DNA from: a virus
Length of the DNA stretch: 64,000 bases
Strand: one strand, 5' to 3'
Virus record (IMG/VR): IMGVR_UViG_3300023174_000097
Location: 1 to 64,000 of that record
Shown: one piece after another, positions 53,953 through 61,736 of the stretch
Layout: every line of letters starts with the position of its first letter
Position numbering within the stretch: the stretch's first letter is position 1
The notes under the pieces: model-generated
What the model was told of the DNA's origin: nothing
Seen by the model: the letters and a program-made list of their open reading frames with translations, nothing else
Database searches by the model: none
Program-made: the position numbers and the translations under genes

Positions 53953-54474
53953 ATGATCCTAGGACTTGACATATCAACTTCATGCACCGGTATAACTATA
54001 TTAGATTATACTGATCGTGTTGTTTTAAATGATTGCTGGAAATTTAAAGAAGATGATGTCTTTGATAAATTAGAACGTGCAAAAAAAGAAATAAGAGAAC
54101 TAAAAAAGAAACATCCAATAACAGAAGTGTTTGTTGAAGAAAGCCTTCAAGCATTTCGTCCTGGTTTTTCATCTGCAAAAACAATTCTTTCACTTGCTAA
54201 ATTTAACGGTATTCTTTGCTGGATGATTTGGGAAGAATTAGGAATAAAAGTTAAATATATCGGCTCAACAACTGCAAGAAAGAATTGTGGAATAAAGATA
54301 ATAAAAGGAACTCCAGCCAAGCAACAAGTGATGGAATGGATGCTGCAAAATCAATCATGGTTTAAAGTAGAAAAGAAAAAAAATAGTGACAAGATAAAAG
54401 ATCATTATTATGATATGGCAGATAGTTTTGTCATCGCCAGAGCAGGATTTCTCTCCATAACGAACAACAAATAA
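53953..54474 (+). CDS. RuvC-like Holliday junction resolvase
   Basis: ILGLDISTSCTG, VFVEE, DMADS. Confidence 0.8.
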   Translation: MILGLDISTSCTGITILDYTDRVVLNDCWKFKEDDVFDKLERAKKEIRELKKKHPITEVFVEESLQAFRPGFSSAKTILSLAKFNGILCWMIWEELGIKVKYIGSTTARKNCGIKIIKGTPAKQQVMEWMLQNQSWFKVEKKKNSDKIKDHYYDMADSFVIARAGFLSITNNK

Positions 54475-54546
54475 TTGAAACTAATTATAGTAGTTCTGAG
54501 ATTTTTCAGGACAGGATTTCTTTATTTCTTTTTGGAGGATTTATAA

Positions 54547-55548
54547 ATGTTTTTTTATTGCGAAAAGACACCAATTGTTTTGTCAACGAGTGTCGCAACA
54601 CTATCTTTTAGTAATATTGCTGTTAATTCAAGTAGTTCGGTAACTTTTACAGTTAACTCAACTGGCGATACAACAGAAACTATTACATTAACCGACGATT
54701 CAAATCAATTTGATTTTTCACCAAGCTCATTCAGCCTATTTGGTGGAGAAAGTCAAGTTGTTACAGCAAACTTTAGACCAACTGCTTCTGCAAGAAAAAC
54801 TGCAAAAGTAACAATTACAGCTTCAGGTGGAAGTGTTAGTAGCGTTGCTCTAACCGGTTCAGCAACAACCTATAATACTTTATTGAATACCGATGCATTA
54901 GCACCATATGTTTATGCAGATCGTGAAAAAGGTTTAACACCACCTTCTGGCGTTGGTTCATTCCCAACAGGAAGTACCGGATGGATGTTTAAAAACATAA
55001 CATCAACTGGTGTTAGCTCATCATTTAATTATTATTTCTATGATGCCGGTATAACAAATAGTGCATCAGTTTCACAATTAGATAATGCATATGCTGTAGT
55101 CACAATGAACGCCAATACAGCAGCTTCTTCAAGTTGGCGTCCATTTCTTACAATTTATACTAATCGTACGAGACCAGTTACACAAGCAGAAATCAATTCA
55201 GGTACATACTGGTTTGATAGCCGCTTAAGTTATTCAATATATACCGGTTCAGTTTCTGCTAATACAAAATATTTGATGTATTTCGGAAATGATCCAGGTG
55301 TATATCCATCTTTACCAAGATTGAAGATGGGTCTTATGACTAATCCATTAGTAACAATAACTTCTTCACTGACACCAAACGAAGCAGTTTATAGTCTTAG
55401 TGTTGCCACTGCTGCAGGCTCACCTTCATCAGCGGGCGCACCAGCTTATTCTACTAATTTGAATAAGCAAATAATTGTCACAGAAGCTGTTGGATTCCAA
55501 TCAACAAAAGGAACTGGCAGCTGGTATGAAACAATGTTACGCTCTTGA
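54547..55548 (+). CDS. Ig-like domain protein, putative virion decoration
   Basis: LSF......S....FTV..TG......F.......L..GES..VT..F.PT Ig-like pattern; Ser/Thr-rich. Confidence 0.6.
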   Translation: MFFYCEKTPIVLSTSVATLSFSNIAVNSSSSVTFTVNSTGDTTETITLTDDSNQFDFSPSSFSLFGGESQVVTANFRPTASARKTAKVTITASGGSVSSVALTGSATTYNTLLNTDALAPYVYADREKGLTPPSGVGSFPTGSTGWMFKNITSTGVSSSFNYYFYDAGITNSASVSQLDNAYAVVTMNANTAASSSWRPFLTIYTNRTRPVTQAEINSGTYWFDSRLSYSIYTGSVSANTKYLMYFGNDPGVYPSLPRLKMGLMTNPLVTITSSLTPNEAVYSLSVATAAGSPSSAGAPAYSTNLNKQIIVTEAVGFQSTKGTGSWYETMLRS

Positions 55549-55569
55549 TACTATAAAATAGTAATTTAG

Positions 55570-55602
55570 TATCCCCCTTGAAATATAGGGGGATATTTTT
55601 TT
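55570..55602 (+). terminator. Intrinsic terminator
   Basis: TATCCCCCT-TGAAATAT-AGGGGGATA followed by T7. Confidence 0.85.
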
Positions 55603-55624
55603 AAACACTATTTATAGAAGAATT

Positions 55625-55873
55625 ATGCCTCTTTATTATCGTGAACCTTTAATAAAACTATTATTTAGAGAATCATTTGAATATCCAAGTTGGACAGGTA
55701 CATATGATACAGGTAGTATCATTTATCCAACATTTACCGGTTCAGTTGTTTTTGCAGAAAGTTATGAATATCCAAGTTGGATTGGAACATATGATACAGG
55801 AAGTATAATTTCTCCAACATTTACAGGTTCAGTTTTGTTTTCAGAAACATACGACTCTGGTTCATGGCCATAA
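55625..55873 (+). CDS. Small protein with 29-aa tandem repeats
   Basis: FRESFEYPSWTGTYDTGSIIYPTFTGSVV / FAESYEYPSWIGTYDTGSIISPTFTGSVL / FSETYDSGSW. Confidence 0.7.
   Translation: MPLYYREPLIKLLFRESFEYPSWTGTYDTGSIIYPTFTGSVVFAESYEYPSWIGTYDTGSIISPTFTGSVLFSETYDSGSWP
55664..55867 (+). repeat. 87-bp coding tandem repeat, about 2.3 copies
   Basis: Units start at 55664, 55751 and 55838. Confidence 0.8.
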
Positions 55874-55893
55874 TTAATAAAGGATTTTAACAT

Positions 55894-56682
55894 ATGTCTC
55901 AAAGTGATTGGAATTTTATTTTAGCTGATGCAAATACTTTTATTGGTGGCACTTCCGGCAGTGCAAAACAGCATACTGATTTTTCAAATCCATTAACTAG
56001 TTCAGGTGATTGGTGTAGATATTTTCAACCAGATAATGGCGTTCAATCATATCGTCAGCTTGCAATGATTCCTGTTGGTAATTCTGAATTAACAAGCTCA
56101 TCTGGATATGAATATGGATATGGATATTCTATGAGAGTGTGGACGAGAGCAGAGTGGAACGCTTGTGGAACTCTTTTAACATTTAAAAATTACAGCGATT
56201 TATCAATCACATATCCTCCAGATCCTTTTTATAATATTAAAAATTCTTTGGGCTATGGATTATGTATCTATAATAGCACAGAATTAACTTTATTCTGTAA
56301 TTCCAGTAATGCCATTCAAGTCAACGAAAGTCTTGATCCTGCGTATAATCAATATGGATATAGTAAAAATATTAGCATATCAACAGCAAATAATATCTGG
56401 AAAGGTATTAGAATGGACGTTACTCCAATATCAGGAGCTTATGATAAAATAACAGTATATACTGCAGAAAGAACAACTCCGGATGTATGGACAGAAAGAC
56501 ATACAGTTAATATTCCACGAACAAAAACCGGTGCATATATTCCTTGGGCAAATAATCCAAATGGCGACGGTGCTGCTGCAAGCGGAAAAGGATATATGGG
56601 AATAAGAGTGTGGGCTAGATATGATACCGCTCCTGTATCAATCGATCAATTTGAAGTATATAAACAAAGAATAATCCCTTGA
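55894..56682 (+). CDS. Hypothetical beta-rich protein, putative virion
   Basis: AAGGA RBS; 262-aa ORF. Confidence 0.7.
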   Translation: MSQSDWNFILADANTFIGGTSGSAKQHTDFSNPLTSSGDWCRYFQPDNGVQSYRQLAMIPVGNSELTSSSGYEYGYGYSMRVWTRAEWNACGTLLTFKNYSDLSITYPPDPFYNIKNSLGYGLCIYNSTELTLFCNSSNAIQVNESLDPAYNQYGYSKNISISTANNIWKGIRMDVTPISGAYDKITVYTAERTTPDVWTERHTVNIPRTKTGAYIPWANNPNGDGAAASGKGYMGIRVWARYDTAPVSIDQFEVYKQRIIP

Positions 56683-56684
56683 CC

Positions 56685-56713
56685 TTGACAAGACGCGAAC
56701 GAGCTGATAGCGT
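56685..56713 (+). promoter_or_regulatory. Sigma70-type promoter upstream of the primase locus
   Basis: TTGACA (56685-56690), 17 bp, TGa-TAGCGT (56708-56713); ATG follows at 56723. Confidence 0.55.
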
Positions 56714-56722
56714 CGTGCTTGA

Positions 56723-56869
56723 ATGTCCGACTCCCACAAAGAACAGATCCTCATAGAAATTCTAAGCACTCCCCTCCGTTCTGGCGGGGAGTTACTTTTT
56801 TATTGTCCTAAATGCAAACATCATAAACCAAAATGCGATACTATTTATCATTATGCAACAAATTATTAA
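56723..56869 (+). pseudogene. Orphan 5' fragment of DNA primase, 48-aa ORF, not in the ORF track
   Basis: MSDSHKEQILIEILSTPLRSGGELLFYCPKCKHHKPK matches the primase N-terminus at 57640-57735 in 23 of 32 residues. Confidence 0.85.
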
Positions 56870-57659
56870 TACTGGAATATATTGCATAAGAAACATTATA
56901 AACAATAAAATATACATTGGTTCTTCGTGTAATATTAAAAAAAGATTTAGATATCATAAATGGCAATTAAATAACAATAAACATCATTCATTTTTACTAC
57001 AAAATGCGTGGAATAAATATGGAGAAAATAGTTTTGTATTTGAAGTTCTACAAGAAGTAGAAACACATTTACTGATAACCGAAGAACAAAAATGGCTAGA
57101 TGAAAAGAAAACATATCAACCAGAAAATGGGTACAACATATCAAACATAGCAGGAAATCCTTTAAATTTATTTACAGAAGAAACAAGAAAAAAGATTTCA
57201 CTCAAAAATAAAGGAAAAATAGTTTCTGAAGAAACCCGTAAAAAAATGAGTGCTTCTCGTCTAGGAAAATCTCTTTCGGAAGAGCATAAGAAAAAATTAA
57301 GTGAAATAAAGAAGGGGAAAACGTTTTCGGAAGAACACAAAAAAAATTTAAGTAATTCACAAAGAGGATTAACTAGACAATTTTCGGAACAACACAAAAA
57401 GAAACTAAGTGAAGCAAAAAAAGGAAAATGTATTTCTAATGAACACAAACAAAAGATCAGTTTGACTAGCCGTGGAAGGAATAGTAAACTTACAGCAGAA
57501 CAAATTTTAGAATTAATTTCTTTATATGAGACAGGAAATCATTCTACAAGAGAATTAGCAAAAATTTTTAATATTTCTAAAAGCAACGTCCATTCAATTG
57601 TTGCTAGAAAGACGTGGAAATACCTTGACGATAAACCAGAAGGAACAGATATTAATTGA
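56853..57659 (+). CDS. GIY-YIG homing endonuclease with NUMOD3-like repeats and C-terminal HTH
   Basis: GIYCI.N..N.KIYIGSS, LQNAWNKYG, repeated SEE(T/H)KKK(L/M)S, terminal HTH. Confidence 0.92.
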   Translation: MQQIINTGIYCIRNIINNKIYIGSSCNIKKRFRYHKWQLNNNKHHSFLLQNAWNKYGENSFVFEVLQEVETHLLITEEQKWLDEKKTYQPENGYNISNIAGNPLNLFTEETRKKISLKNKGKIVSEETRKKMSASRLGKSLSEEHKKKLSEIKKGKTFSEEHKKNLSNSQRGLTRQFSEQHKKKLSEAKKGKCISNEHKQKISLTSRGRNSKLTAEQILELISLYETGNHSTRELAKIFNISKSNVHSIVARKTWKYLDDKPEGTDIN

Positions 57660-58566
57660 TATTTTTGGAGTTCCTCTACACTCAGGAGAGGAATTACTTT
57701 TTCAATGTAAGAAGTGCTCACATCACAAGCCTAAACTGAGCTGTAATGTCCGTAAAAACGTTTTTAAATGTTGGGTATGCAACTTTACGGGAACTAACTT
57801 AACAAGGCTGGTAAAGCGTTATGGTTCGTATAAACAGAAACAAGAGTGGAGTAGGTATGATGACAAAATTGATTTGTCTTCCACTTCTTTTGCAGATACT
57901 TTATTTGGAGAACAAGAAGCAAATGAGACGCTACTTAATCTCCCTAAAGAATTTATTTCCTTAACAGGAAAGCACAATTCTCTTTCAAATGTCGCTCTTC
58001 GTTATTTATATGAGCGAGGAATAACAAAAGAAGATATTTTAAAGTGGAAGATTGGTTATTGTCCGGATGGCGAATATGGTGGACGAGTTATTGTTCCCAG
58101 CTTCAACCTTGAAGGAAAAATAAATTATTTTATTGGTCGTTCTTATCGTGATGATTGGATGAAATATAAAAATCCGCCACTGCACAAAAATTCTATTATC
58201 TTTAATGAATTATATGTTGATTGGGATAGTGATTTGGTCTTGACAGAAGGCGTATTTGATGCTATTGTCGCGGGTAATGCTATACCCCTTCTCGGTTCAA
58301 CTTTACCCGAAACAAGCCGTTTATTTCAGGAAGTTGCGAAACATGACACGCCGATTTACATTGCGCTTGATCCGGATGCGGAGAAAAAAGCGAAATACTT
58401 GATTAGAGATATGTTGCAATATGGAATTGAACTCTATAAAATAGATGTTCGTGGTTTCCAAGATGTTGGCAGCATGACTAAGCAAGAATTTGTAGAAAGA
58501 AAAAATTCTGCATTACCGATGAATGCAGAAAGTTTATTTAAGTATCAATTACAAGGAATCATATGA
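57625..58566 (+). CDS. dnaG: DNA primase (zinc-binding domain plus TOPRIM)
   Basis: CKKC...CWVC zinc site, YL.ERGI, KYKNP, TEGVFDAI, ALDPDA; probable TTG start at 57625. Confidence 0.9.
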   Translation: MTINQKEQILIDIFGVPLHSGEELLFQCKKCSHHKPKLSCNVRKNVFKCWVCNFTGTNLTRLVKRYGSYKQKQEWSRYDDKIDLSSTSFADTLFGEQEANETLLNLPKEFISLTGKHNSLSNVALRYLYERGITKEDILKWKIGYCPDGEYGGRVIVPSFNLEGKINYFIGRSYRDDWMKYKNPPLHKNSIIFNELYVDWDSDLVLTEGVFDAIVAGNAIPLLGSTLPETSRLFQEVAKHDTPIYIALDPDAEKKAKYLIRDMLQYGIELYKIDVRGFQDVGSMTKQEFVERKNSALPMNAESLFKYQLQGII

Positions 58567-61500
58567 TTAAACTCGCACATCTGGCTGACACACATATCAG
58601 AAACCTAAAATATCACGAAGAATATCGTGAAGTTTTTAAAAAAATCTTTTCAATTCTACGAGAAGAAAAGCCCGATTATATTATCCATTGTGGTGATATT
58701 GCTCATACAAAAAATCAAATTTCACCAGAATTTGTTGAGATGTGTTCTTGGTTCTTAAAAGAACTTGCGGACATTTCACCAACATATGTTATTCTTGGCA
58801 ATCATGATACAAATTTAAAGAACGATACTCGTCAAGATAGTATTTCTCCTATCGTTGCCGCACTTAATCATCCAAATCTAACGCTTTGGAAATATTCAGG
58901 TGAACGAGTTATTAGCGATAAACTTGCTTTTAACGTTCTTTCACTAATTGACGAAGATAAATGGGTCAAACCATCAGACCCAAATCGCATCAATATTGCT
59001 CTTTATCACGGAGCAATTGCTGGTGTATCAACCGATATTGGTTATACACTAGAACATTCAGATCATGAGCTTTCAATTTTTGAAGGCCATGATTATGCTT
59101 TTTTAGGCGACATACATAAGACAAATCAAATTGTTGATACAGAAGGACGTGTTCGTTATCCGGGTTCAACAATTTCCCAAAACCATGGGGAAACTGACGA
59201 TAAAGGTTTCCTAATTTGGGAAATTCAAGATAAGAATAATTTTGATGTTCGTCATATTGTAATTCCACATCCTCGTCCATTTATTACAATTAAGCTTGAT
59301 GAAAGTGGCAAGTTTGACGAAACAATTAACATCAAACCAGATGCTCGCATTCGTGTTATTTGTGAACACAACATTTCTGTAAGCGATATTCGCAAATCAA
59401 TTGATGTTATTAAGGTAAAATATATTCCAGAAAGCGTTACCTTTTTAAATAAGGCAACTGATCGTATTGATATCAGTGATACAATTAAAAAGATTGATAC
59501 AGATGATTTGCGTAATCTGCAAACACAAGAAAAACTACTTCGTGAATATTTAAAAGACTTCAGCCCGTCAGAAGAAGTTTTACAAAAAGTATTTGAAATA
59601 AATAAAAAATATAATACAATTGCAGAAGAAAATGAAGAAGTTTCTCGTAATATTCGTTGGTCCTTGAAATCACTTAAATGGGATAATCTATTCAATTATG
59701 GAACTGCTAATAAAATAGATTTTGAAAAACTTCAAGGTGTTGTAGGAGTTTTTGGTAAAAACTTCTCAGGTAAATCCAGCATTATTGATAGTTTGATTTG
59801 GGGAATTCAAAATTCAACAAGTAAAAATGTTCGTAAGAATGTAAATATCATTAATCAAAATCAGCAAAATGCAAAAGCAGAAGTTCAAATTTCTGTTGAT
59901 GATAAGCTTTACATAGTTGAAAGAACTGCTGAAAAGTATTTAAAGAAACTTGCCGGCGAAGAAACACTTGAAGCAAAAACAGATGTATCTTTTAGTGTGT
60001 GCGATGCAAGCGAACAAGAAGATTGTATTACCTATGAAAAAGGCAATCTAAATGGTCTTGACCGCAATGAAACAGACAAGAATATTCGCAAACTATTTGG
60101 AACATTAGAAGATTTTCTTTTTACTTCTATGGCTTCACAAATGGGTTCGCTTGATTTTATCAACGAAGGTTCAACTCGTCGTAAAGAAATTCTTGGAAAG
60201 TTTCTTGATCTTGAACTCTTTGCAAAGAAATATAAACTATCAAACAATGACGCCACAGAACTCAAGGCAGCTTTAAAGCGTCTTGAAAGCAAAGATTACG
60301 ATAAAGAAATCGCTGAAACCCTTATCAAAGGCTCAGAGGCAAAGAAAAAAGCAGAACTGCAGTCTATTGAGTGTGAAGAAGTAAAAGAAGAAATAAAACA
60401 ATTTGCAGACAATATTAACAACATTAATGTTGAAATTGCTTCATTTCCAAAAATAGAAGTTATTGATGTAGATGGAGTAAAACTTTCTCTTAAAAAAATA
60501 GAAGATGATATTCTTGGTTGGCAAACAACAATTGGTACAAATTATAAATTTATTGAAGAAAAAGAAAAAGCATTAGAAAATGCAAGAAAAGTAATTGATG
60601 AAATCAAAATAGATGAATTAAACAATAAAAAACAAACCTTATCAGATAAAAATAAACAACTTGAAAAGGTTTTAAGAGAAATCACGGACGTAGAGAAGGA
60701 TATTCTACGTGATCAAAAAGATATTAAAATCCTTGATGAAGTGCCATGTGGCGATGGTTTCCCATCTTGCAAGTTCTTGACTGATGCTTTTAGCAAAAAA
60801 GCAGACTTGGAAGATAAAAATGAACTTGTAAAAATCTCAAACAAGAAAAAACAAGCGATTGAAGAAGAAATCAAAGAATTAAAGCCAGACGAGATAGAAA
60901 AATCAATCTCAACGCGTAATGTTATTCTTGAAAAGATTAGAAACATGGAAAATCTTATCTCTAATAAGAAACTTGAAGCAGAACAGTTAAATGGAAAAAT
61001 TATTCTATCTCAAAATCTAATTGAAAAACTAGAAAAGAAGATAGAAGATTATTATAAGAATGAAGAAACTGCTCTAAAATTAAAAGAACTAGATGATAAA
61101 AAGCAAGAATTTACTTCGCAAAAGAATAAGCTTTCAAAGAAACTTGTTGAGTGTGAAGCAAGTATATTAAAATTACATCGTGAATATGGTTCATTAGAAC
61201 AGAAATATAAAGATTTAGAGGAATCAAAAAGCGAACTATTAAAATTACGAGATGAATATGCGGCTATTGCTATGTTTGAAAAAGCCATGCACAGCAACGG
61301 AATTAGTTACGATATTATTCGTAAGAAACTCCCAGTAATAAACGAAGAAATTGCAAAAATTCTTTCAAATATTGTTGGATTTGAAATTTTCTTTGAAGAT
61401 GATGGAAAGAAATTAGATATCTTAATCAAACATCCAAAATATGATCCACGTCCACTTGAACTTTGTTCCGGTGCAGAAAAGAGTCTAGCGGCTATGGCAA

Positions 61501-61736
61501 TCCGTTTAGCGTTAACTAAATTAACTACTTTACCTGTGAGTGACGTATTTATATTAGATGAACCAGCAACTGCTCTTGATGAAGAAAATATGGAAGGCTT
61601 TATGCGTATAATTGATATGTTGAAATCACAATTTAAAACAATTATACTTATTTCTCACTTGCCAGAATTGAAAGATGTTGCTGATCTACAAATAACTATT
61701 GATAATGTTGATGGTTATGCGCATGTGGAGGCTTAA
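58563..61736 (+). CDS. Fused Mre11-Rad50 (SbcD-SbcC; T4 gp47-gp46-like) recombination nuclease/ATPase
   Basis: ADTH, GD, GNHD, GDIH nuclease motifs; Walker A GKNFSGKS, coiled coil, CSGAE signature, ILDEP, ISH. Confidence 0.92.
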   Translation: MIKLAHLADTHIRNLKYHEEYREVFKKIFSILREEKPDYIIHCGDIAHTKNQISPEFVEMCSWFLKELADISPTYVILGNHDTNLKNDTRQDSISPIVAALNHPNLTLWKYSGERVISDKLAFNVLSLIDEDKWVKPSDPNRINIALYHGAIAGVSTDIGYTLEHSDHELSIFEGHDYAFLGDIHKTNQIVDTEGRVRYPGSTISQNHGETDDKGFLIWEIQDKNNFDVRHIVIPHPRPFITIKLDESGKFDETINIKPDARIRVICEHNISVSDIRKSIDVIKVKYIPESVTFLNKATDRIDISDTIKKIDTDDLRNLQTQEKLLREYLKDFSPSEEVLQKVFEINKKYNTIAEENEEVSRNIRWSLKSLKWDNLFNYGTANKIDFEKLQGVVGVFGKNFSGKSSIIDSLIWGIQNSTSKNVRKNVNIINQNQQNAKAEVQISVDDKLYIVERTAEKYLKKLAGEETLEAKTDVSFSVCDASEQEDCITYEKGNLNGLDRNETDKNIRKLFGTLEDFLFTSMASQMGSLDFINEGSTRRKEILGKFLDLELFAKKYKLSNNDATELKAALKRLESKDYDKEIAETLIKGSEAKKKAELQSIECEEVKEEIKQFADNINNINVEIASFPKIEVIDVDGVKLSLKKIEDDILGWQTTIGTNYKFIEEKEKALENARKVIDEIKIDELNNKKQTLSDKNKQLEKVLREITDVEKDILRDQKDIKILDEVPCGDGFPSCKFLTDAFSKKADLEDKNELVKISNKKKQAIEEEIKELKPDEIEKSISTRNVILEKIRNMENLISNKKLEAEQLNGKIILSQNLIEKLEKKIEDYYKNEETALKLKELDDKKQEFTSQKNKLSKKLVECEASILKLHREYGSLEQKYKDLEESKSELLKLRDEYAAIAMFEKAMHSNGISYDIIRKKLPVINEEIAKILSNIVGFEIFFEDDGKKLDILIKHPKYDPRPLELCSGAEKSLAAMAIRLALTKLTTLPVSDVFILDEPATALDEENMEGFMRIIDMLKSQFKTIILISHLPELKDVADLQITIDNVDGYAHVEA

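Follow-up and report, generated by a model that had tools for sequence, protein, structure and literature searches.

Intrinsic terminators located within coding sequence have been described in phage T4, where the genes mobE and segF carry them in their 5' coding regions (PMC2988022). About 30% of transcripts end at the mobE terminator, and both terminators were proposed to limit read-through and to keep endonuclease transcripts low (PMC2988022). Here we describe a comparable element, a hairpin followed by a run of T, which occurs twice in positions 1 to 64,000 of the viral record IMGVR_UViG_3300023174_000097 (IMG/VR; this whole stretch of 64,000 nucleotides (nt) is hereafter called the window), each time within the first codons of a copy of the 5' end of a DnaG-type primase gene. 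The element resembles those of mobE and segF in placing a GC-rich hairpin and a U-tract early in an open reading frame (ORF) of a large lytic phage. It differs in that it sits in the invaded host gene, predates the endonuclease and directly follows a predicted leaderless promoter, termination at it being predicted. By this analogy the kind of element is already known, and the primase hairpin would be a further example of it in the context of an endonuclease cassette.

The same source describes hairpins that sequester the ribosome-binding site (RBS) and regulate I-TevI, segB and Aeh1 mobE, proposes translational coupling for several free-standing endonuclease genes of T4, and attributes intronless homing to the free-standing Seg and Mob endonucleases (PMC2988022). 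With I-TevI, segB and Aeh1 mobE, as presented there for those T4-type phages, the primase locus would share an RNA hairpin restraining homing-endonuclease expression, here by prediction. Unlike those RBS hairpins, the first hairpin of the window stops 61 nt short of the endonuclease ATG and overlies no start site. In the 'genes-in-pieces' nrdA of Aeh1, a free-standing endonuclease gene reportedly lies inside or next to an essential gene. Like that arrangement and the Seg and Mob systems, the present locus has an endonuclease gene at an essential gene without intron or intein, spread presumably by gene conversion with flanking host sequence. Unlike in Aeh1 nrdA, the cassette supplies the full codons 1-37 and a start codon; the primase stays in one piece and needs no splicing, and its former 5' end persists as a stub.

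In the rpsU-dnaG-rpoD operon of Escherichia coli, a partial terminator between rpsU and dnaG keeps primase expression low. That terminator is intergenic and cellular, whereas the phage element lies inside coding sequence, ~46-80 nt past the inferred transcription start. In mycobacteria, leaderless short ORFs serve as attenuators, with premature termination in translated regions (bioRxiv 10.1101/834739; 10.1101/2022.06.01.494293). The likeness to the systems described there is that translation from a 5'-terminal AUG would cross a possible early-termination site, and the 48-codon stub of the window resembles a leader ORF; the mycobacterial systems are Rho-dependent or sense amino acids, whereas the phage element has no evident antiterminator fold or sensing codons. 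A literature search returned no account of a hairpin or terminator within the start of a phage primase coding sequence, and nothing on endonuclease cassettes duplicating the 5' end of a gene was found in PMC10448857 and PMC7902536. A hybrid atp6 gene of Allomyces may be an analogue from fungal mitochondria, although the search did not return it.

The hairpin and its conservation in close relatives

Both hairpins lie on the plus strand. Hairpin 1 (56768..56792) has the 5' arm ACTCCCC (56768-56774) and the 3' arm GGGGAGT (56786-56792), with TCCGTTCTGGC between them. Its stem of 7 base pairs (bp) includes five G-C pairs, and two inner CC/GG pairs reduce the apical loop to 5 nt. T-tract 1, TTTTTT (56796..56801), begins 3 nt (TAC) past the stem and falls in the codons CTT TTT TAT (Leu-Phe-Tyr). 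Hairpin 2 (57670..57694), with the 5' arm GTTCCTCT, the interval ACACTCAGG and the 3' arm AGAGGAAT, has 8-9 bp and is weaker than hairpin 1; T-tract 2, TTTTT (57698..57702), likewise stands 3 nt (TAC) past the stem, in Leu-Phe codons. Each hairpin occupies codons 16-24 of its primase 5' copy, or codons 16-26 with the T-run included, and the register is identical when counted from the ATG of copy 1 (56723) and the TTG of copy 2 (57625). An earlier note on this DNA, made from the letters alone, had placed both hairpins and both T-runs at the same codons, and its positions are exact to the base. It had also listed three changes between the copies that retain pairing, which the sequence check bore out: C56769-G56791 becomes T57671-A57693, C56773-G56787 becomes T57675-A57689 (codon GGG, Gly, to GAG, Glu), and A56768-T56792 becomes G57670.T57694. 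The copies are identical at 71/111 nt and 23/37 residues, and at 17/27 nt within the hairpin.

Folded as RNA, copy 1 has a minimum free energy (MFE) of -15.8 kcal/mol (z-score -2.8), equalled by 3/200 dinucleotide shuffles, and copy 2 one of -10.5 kcal/mol (z -1.3), equalled by 19/200. A stricter null model kept the peptide fixed and redrew synonymous codons from the usage of the genome itself. Under this null the MFE of copy 1 was matched in 9/2000 draws and its 8 of 9 in-register pairs in 26/20,000, while for copy 2 the MFE was matched in 141/2000 and the in-register pairs in 510/20,000; the expectation under the synonymous null is already 4.0-5.6 of 9 in-register pairs. Taken alone, copy 1 is clearly non-random and copy 2 marginal. 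The stem of copy 1 is written in codons that are rare in the genome (CCC, 4% of Pro; GGG, 2% of Gly; GAG, 10% of Glu; CTC, 5% of Leu), and GC content is 68% in the hairpin vs 26% in the remainder of the copy.

The strong support for a selected stem comes from relatives rather than from copy 2. Primase relatives were drawn from 80 loci on viral contigs and 80 loci on metagenome contigs (numbered L). The same helix is present at the same codons in endonuclease-free relatives, so the insertion came after the hairpin. Most close relatives have the stem extended to 13 pairs, GGCACTCCCCATC.../...GGTGGGGAGT-T-GCT, with TTTTT directly next and -21 to -22 kcal/mol; this extended stem (GGCACT../..AGT-T-GCT) abuts TTTTT in L002, L004, L006, L008, L009, L082 and copy 1 of L088.

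Covariation was assessed on an alignment of 17 distinct sequences, comprising the close clade, both window copies and L038. Pairing was found in 87.3% of 221 cells, vs 45.7-62.4% when the 3' partners were slid by 1-3 columns. Changes on both sides of a pair occurred in 5/13 pairs, which 3/500 shuffles reached, and the covariation score was 0.240 vs 0.160, with 0/500 shuffles as high, counts that overstate independence because the aligned sequences are related. RNAalifold recovered the helix unaided, with 4 compensated pairs. CCC/GGG has switched to CCT/GAG in window copy 2 as well as in L006, L009, L010 and L012, and in L038, a 49%-identical relative, the top pair is flipped from C-G to G-C. 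The covariation among homologous primase 5' ends that the earlier note had proposed looking for is thus present and, together with the rare GC-rich codons and the conserved position in endonuclease-free relatives, indicates that the structure is real and selected. That note had left open whether RNA or single-stranded DNA was folded. Since G.U cells outnumber A.C cells (39 vs 9, of 221), sense-strand RNA is favoured over the opposite strand or a cruciform, and the selected structure is very probably an RNA.

Promoter, terminator shape and breadth across the primase family

A sigma70-like promoter precedes copy 1 on the plus strand (56685..56713), with the -35 box TTGACA (56685-56690), a 17-nt GC-rich spacer and the -10 box TAGCGT (56708-56713), which ends 9 nt before the ATG. 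The arrangement TTGACA-N17-TAnnnT before the primase ATG recurs in the close clade and in several other lineages, with spacers that are variable and GC-rich and a gap to the ATG that is short and fixed. It was found at 22/107 unique homologue starts with enough upstream sequence (gap of 6 nt in 16, 7-9 nt in 6), the base rate being 230/13,233 ATG triplets in the loci (1.7%). A -10 box 6-9 nt from the ATG implies, from the motif, that the primase mRNA is leaderless or nearly so; hairpin 1 would then lie at about +46 to +70 and its T-run at about +74 to +79 from the predicted transcription start. In L005 and L007 the -35 box has decayed to TTGCAA. A candidate promoter for the copy-2 primase, TTGACG-N17-GATATT (57625-57653), was rejected, as its transcription start would fall downstream of the TTG codon.

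A second promoter of the same type was observed outside the window (G000:C1:98304-99525, L163), consisting of TTGACA, a GC-rich 17-nt spacer, TATGAT and 8 nt before an ATG at 98341. The ORF behind it, of 394 residues, encodes a domain of the family A DNA polymerases (PF00476, 2e-12).

In 113 unique homologues, the 54 nt that precede the first zinc-finger Cys fold more strongly than synonymous resamples do (mean z -0.89), and z lies below -2 in 19% of them vs 2-6% for five windows taken from the same genes as controls. When homologues were grouped into 39 clusters at 70% protein identity, 14/39 clusters had a member with z below -2, vs 2-7/39 in the control windows, and paired tests of cluster medians against the five control windows gave p = 0.06, 0.008, 0.009, 1e-4 and 6e-5. 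Structure goes together with the promoter: homologues with the promoter layout (n=22) have a mean z of -2.21, with 55% below -2, vs -0.51 and 9% in those without it (n=85; Mann-Whitney p = 1e-6 uncorrected; p = 0.04 on 6 vs 33 clusters).

Stems unrelated in sequence occupy the same site and end at the T-run in L106, L071, L159, L020 and L045, and L097 also has a non-homologous stem there. That of L106 (AAAAAGGTATTCGGAGC...GCTCCGAATACCTTTTTT) reaches -29.4 kcal/mol and z -6.9 against the synonymous null; in L071, TAGCTCA...TGAGCTA is followed by CTTTTTT. The L106 hairpin (L106:1516-1562) comprises 20 pairs at the same codons of a primase ~49% identical and is flanked by an A-run and a T-run; in shape it resembles a bidirectional terminator placed within an ORF. 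A hairpin of -10 kcal/mol or lower abutting at least 6 T in 8 nt was present in 17% of real sequences vs 3.5% under the synonymous null and 0-1% in control windows, and such a terminator-shaped hairpin was found in 10/39 clusters.

The terminators of the phage itself were surveyed by scanning the contig, which yielded 22 plus-strand sites with a hairpin and T-run at -9 kcal/mol or better, 10 of them intergenic by crude gene calls. Nine of these ten lie between genes as textbook terminators of ~-10 to -22 kcal/mol. The remaining one, copy 1, falls at -16.0 kcal/mol within the range of the intergenic terminators and was counted as intergenic only because the 48-codon stub had not been called; copy 2 scored -9.0 kcal/mol. 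The stem is GC-rich, within ~5-14 bp and closed by a short loop, as in intrinsic terminators, while TAC parts it from T6 in copy 1 and from T5 in copy 2. Frameshifting or slippage at the T-run was considered and rejected, the hairpin being upstream of the run, not downstream, and the run only 5-6 T long.

The endonuclease cassette and its genomic setting

The two primase 5' copies are separated by an inserted cassette of 902 bp (56834..57735, plus strand), composed of a 19-nt junction, a GIY-YIG endonuclease gene and replacement primase codons 1-37. Copy 1 is the resident remnant, a 48-codon ORF (56723..56869, plus strand) in which primase likeness stops after codon 37 (Lys, 56831-56833) and 11 unrelated codons follow. 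The endonuclease ORF (56853..57659, plus strand, 268 residues) has GIY-YIG, NUMOD3 and helix-turn-helix domains (PF01541, 5.7e-10; PF07460, 3.9e-10; PF02796, HTH_7, 4.6e-07; phrog_314, 8e-39). A GIY-YIG domain, a DNA-binding module and presence or absence at one site together mark it as a predicted homing endonuclease. The primase restarts inside the 3' end of this gene, the first 35 nt of its ORF overlapping (57625-57659), and runs from an inferred TTG start, which aligns with the ATG start in the cassettes of L003 and L088, to 58566 (57625..58566, plus strand). This copy-2 ORF, predicted to be the functional one, matches phrog_47 (7.1e-42) and PF08275 (7.4e-07) and has the zinc-ribbon motifs CKKC...CWVC, where the truncated copy 1 has only the first CxxC; these features identify it as a putative DnaG-type (Toprim) phage primase.

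A single uninterrupted primase is present in most of the collected relatives. The layout of endonuclease and duplication recurs in three more genomes, L003 (same contig as L086), L088 and a contig of sequencing run X7, at the same codon in each, and the site is empty in L001, L002 and L004-L010. A search of sequencing runs listed none of RNA that contains the sequence. Comparison of contigs of 4 DNA runs across the region revealed no joints and one cassette-bearing contig (run X7, record 20), which is 95% identical to the window with 56 differing positions over 56723-57980; the stem of its copy 2 is unchanged. The cassettes of the window, L003 and L088 align end to end, including the junction after the Lys-37 codon. 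Copy 1 in each genome resembles a different endonuclease-free relative: the N-terminus of window copy 1 matches such relatives as L002 and L004, L003 copy 1 differs from L002, its empty-site relative, at 1/66 nt, and that of L088 belongs to the L004 type. Among themselves the cassette copies are similar. As the resident copies differ and the cassette copies are alike, the mobile unit is the endonuclease gene together with substitute primase codons 1-37, and insertion of such a unit leaves the resident 5' end upstream as a stub. The differences between the window copies, described in the earlier note as recoding, are on this comparison differences between two primase lineages (orthologues) rather than changes made in place, copy 2 having come with the cassette from another lineage. 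Nor does the cassette copy generally keep the hairpin: copy 2 has none in L003/L086 and L088, two of the four cassette-bearing genomes.

A group I intron carrying the endonuclease was rejected, as the covariance models of Rfam 15 gave 0 matches at E up to 1 in 55000-59000 on both strands; the hairpins thus match no curated RNA family there either. An intein was also rejected, the insert being out of frame with the primase and the duplicate 5' end carrying a start codon of its own. The first 17 nt of the endonuclease ORF, from its ATG, lie within the end of the stub ORF (56853-56869), and in L003 and L088 the ATG lies one base past the stub stop (TAGTATG, TAATATG). This overlap or close spacing suggests translational coupling of the endonuclease, and the chain of overlapping ORFs from the predicted leaderless stub suggests that coupling could be serial. 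The start codon of the endonuclease (56853) is separated from the promoter by hairpin 1, which precedes the cassette insertion point by ~40 nt. The copies diverge most past the T-run, in codons 27-37, the likelier nuclease target. In the cultured cyanophage Microcystis phage Mel-JY01 (L162:1-449), an annotated GIY-YIG gene ends 61 nt upstream of the primase start, which suggests that free-standing GIY-YIG genes beside primase genes are recurrent.

The 64 kb of the window open a single contig of 103,706 bp with a GC content of 31.9%, whose plus strand carries 82/86 genes by a crude ORF call, and by family profile matches the gene content near the hairpins is of phage type. The hairpin locus is inside a replication gene block, which begins with a RuvC-like resolvase gene (53953-54474). 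Three ORFs without matches in the family search follow this gene, and then a 40-nt gap before the 48-codon ORF. One of the window's ORFs (55625-55873, 82 residues) consists of two tandem ~28-residue units (ES[FY]EYPSW.GTYDTGSII.PTFTGSV.F) and likewise gave no match in the family search. The stretch from the RuvC-like gene to the primase promoter (54475-56722) differs among relatives; in L001, L005 and L009 RuvC adjoins the promoter, in the window the three additional ORFs separate the two, and a strong terminator lies at 55568-55597 within this extra stretch. Downstream of the primase, a single 1057-residue ORF (58563-61736) joins an SbcD/Mre11-like phosphoesterase to an SbcC/Rad50-like ATPase (PF00149, PF02463; phrog_100, phrog_77), forming a fused SbcD-SbcC-like nuclease. 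In T4 the two parts are separate proteins.

Probable attenuation, alternative readings and significance

At somewhat better than even confidence, we read the hairpin and T-run as a promoter-proximal, partial intrinsic (Rho-independent) terminator, that is, an attenuator, as the earlier note had proposed among other roles. The reading is sensible given a conserved promoter whose -10 box ends 6-9 nt from the ATG. Formed by sense-strand RNA, an old and selected hairpin would attenuate transcripts from the adjacent promoter and so keep primase transcription low or conditional. The GIY-YIG cassette landed after codon 37 and brought the primase 5' end of another lineage, and with it the predicted attenuator a second time. 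Copy 1, resident beside the promoter, may now also gate read-through into the endonuclease, and copy 2 would be an inherited, weaker version that is probably dispensable.

A number of observations weigh against this. In the window, a 3-nt spacer and a 7-bp core with an 11-nt loop make what appears to be a poorer terminator shape than that of relatives, and copy 2 is marginal when taken alone. The T-run, which the earlier note had described as conserved in both copies, is mostly forced by conserved Leu-Leu-Phe codons; its mean in hairpin-bearing sequences is 4.59 vs 4.07 under the null, and its excess over sequences without the hairpin is weak (p = 0.06, 0.035 uncorrected). Of that note's interpretation, the selected structure is supported, the view of recoding needs correction, and the T-tract is to be put down mostly to the peptide. 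The hairpin is absent from L005 and L007, the two loci with the decayed -35 box, and has been lost from the cassette copy 2 in L003/L086 and L088. In copy 1 of the X7 contig, 56773 C>T and 56774 C>G alter the 5' arm, no 3'-arm change is listed, and the stem is shortened. In L002 the promoter is closely preceded by a canonical terminator; ending the upstream operon does not require the hairpin there, and it is not simply a terminator of upstream genes. The polymerase promoter at 98304 is followed by no comparable hairpin and T-run in the first 130 nt, and the design is accordingly not general in this phage. Across the family the feature is recurrent yet not universal: the terminator-shaped hairpin is absent from most of the 39 clusters, the cluster-level excess of structure is modest (p = 0.06 against control window c0), and two cultured relatives (an immuto-group Flavobacterium phage and Microcystis phage Mel-JY01) have no hairpin at the equivalent codons, both having a canonical terminator upstream of the primase, and neither offers a test system in culture.

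A translation-gated terminator on the predicted leaderless mRNA is an extension of the attenuator reading that we regard as unlikely. A ribosome arriving promptly at the 5'-terminal AUG would block the stem and allow escape from termination at ~+80, while untranslated transcripts, including upstream read-through, would stop at the hairpin, and the phage would make primase synthesis depend on how well its host translates leaderless mRNAs. This gate would have been taken over by the endonuclease cassette, and different lineages would have rebuilt it with unrelated stems at the same codons. It is comparably unlikely that the RNA structure is selected for a role other than termination, such as a repressor operator or primase autoregulation, processing or stability through RNase III or RNase E, or a slowing of early elongation, with the T-run representing Leu-Phe codons. 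Covariation and the G.U bias indicate an RNA structure and are silent on its function, the protein sequence largely explains the T-run, stem and run are 3 nt apart in the window, and in some lineages (e.g. L021, L103/L105, L052) a strong hairpin does not adjoin the T-run. Against such a role, the 3' arm of the strongest hairpins usually abuts the run (L004, L008, L082, L106, L071), and the terminator-shaped combination is ~5-fold over the synonymous null; a sequence-specific protein operator in particular fits poorly with stems that differ wholly in sequence between lineages.

That the stem has no function at all, being a by-product of the Thr/Val-Pro...Gly-Gly/Glu-Glu peptide (CCN faces GGN/GAR) and of local GC-rich codons, with copy 2 keeping it by descent and chance, we regard as improbable. 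Pro and Gly/Glu codons are partly complementary by nature, as the synonymous expectation for in-register pairs shows, copy 2 is only marginally unusual under that null, close relatives are non-independent samples, and L005/L007 and two cassette copies lost the structure with no obvious ill effect. Chance of this sort is at odds, however, with the 26/20,000 of copy 1 under the same null, with codons that are rare (2-10%) and GC-rich only within the stem, with compensated pairs in separate lineages, with unrelated stems at the same site in ~50% identical lineages such as L106, and with control windows of the same genes that are far less structured. Least probable, and very unlikely in our view, is a structure acting at the DNA level, as a cruciform or single-strand hairpin for replication initiation or as a recognition site or recombination boundary of the endonuclease. 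The reverse strand of copy 1 also folds well (-19.0 kcal/mol), and the element adjoins a promoter and a replication gene and is close upstream of the cassette insertion point. The tolerated G.U pairs, however, are A.C mismatches on the other strand; the hairpin exists in endonuclease-free genomes and varies in sequence by lineage, unlike a nuclease target, for which codons 27-37, downstream of the T-run, are the likelier place; and no iterons or repeats were seen in the stretch inspected.

If the attenuator reading is right and the element terminates, it would be a compact control element within the first 25 codons of an essential replication gene, in which the same bases serve protein and RNA fold; with differing stems, several phage lineages seem to have arrived at it. 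On a template of ~150 bp, the element lends itself to asking in a simple way whether translation of a leaderless mRNA lets the ribosome override a terminator. The locus also shows how a selfish endonuclease can enter an essential gene without intron or intein: the cassette brings a spare 5' end and inherits the promoter and the predicted brake of its host gene.

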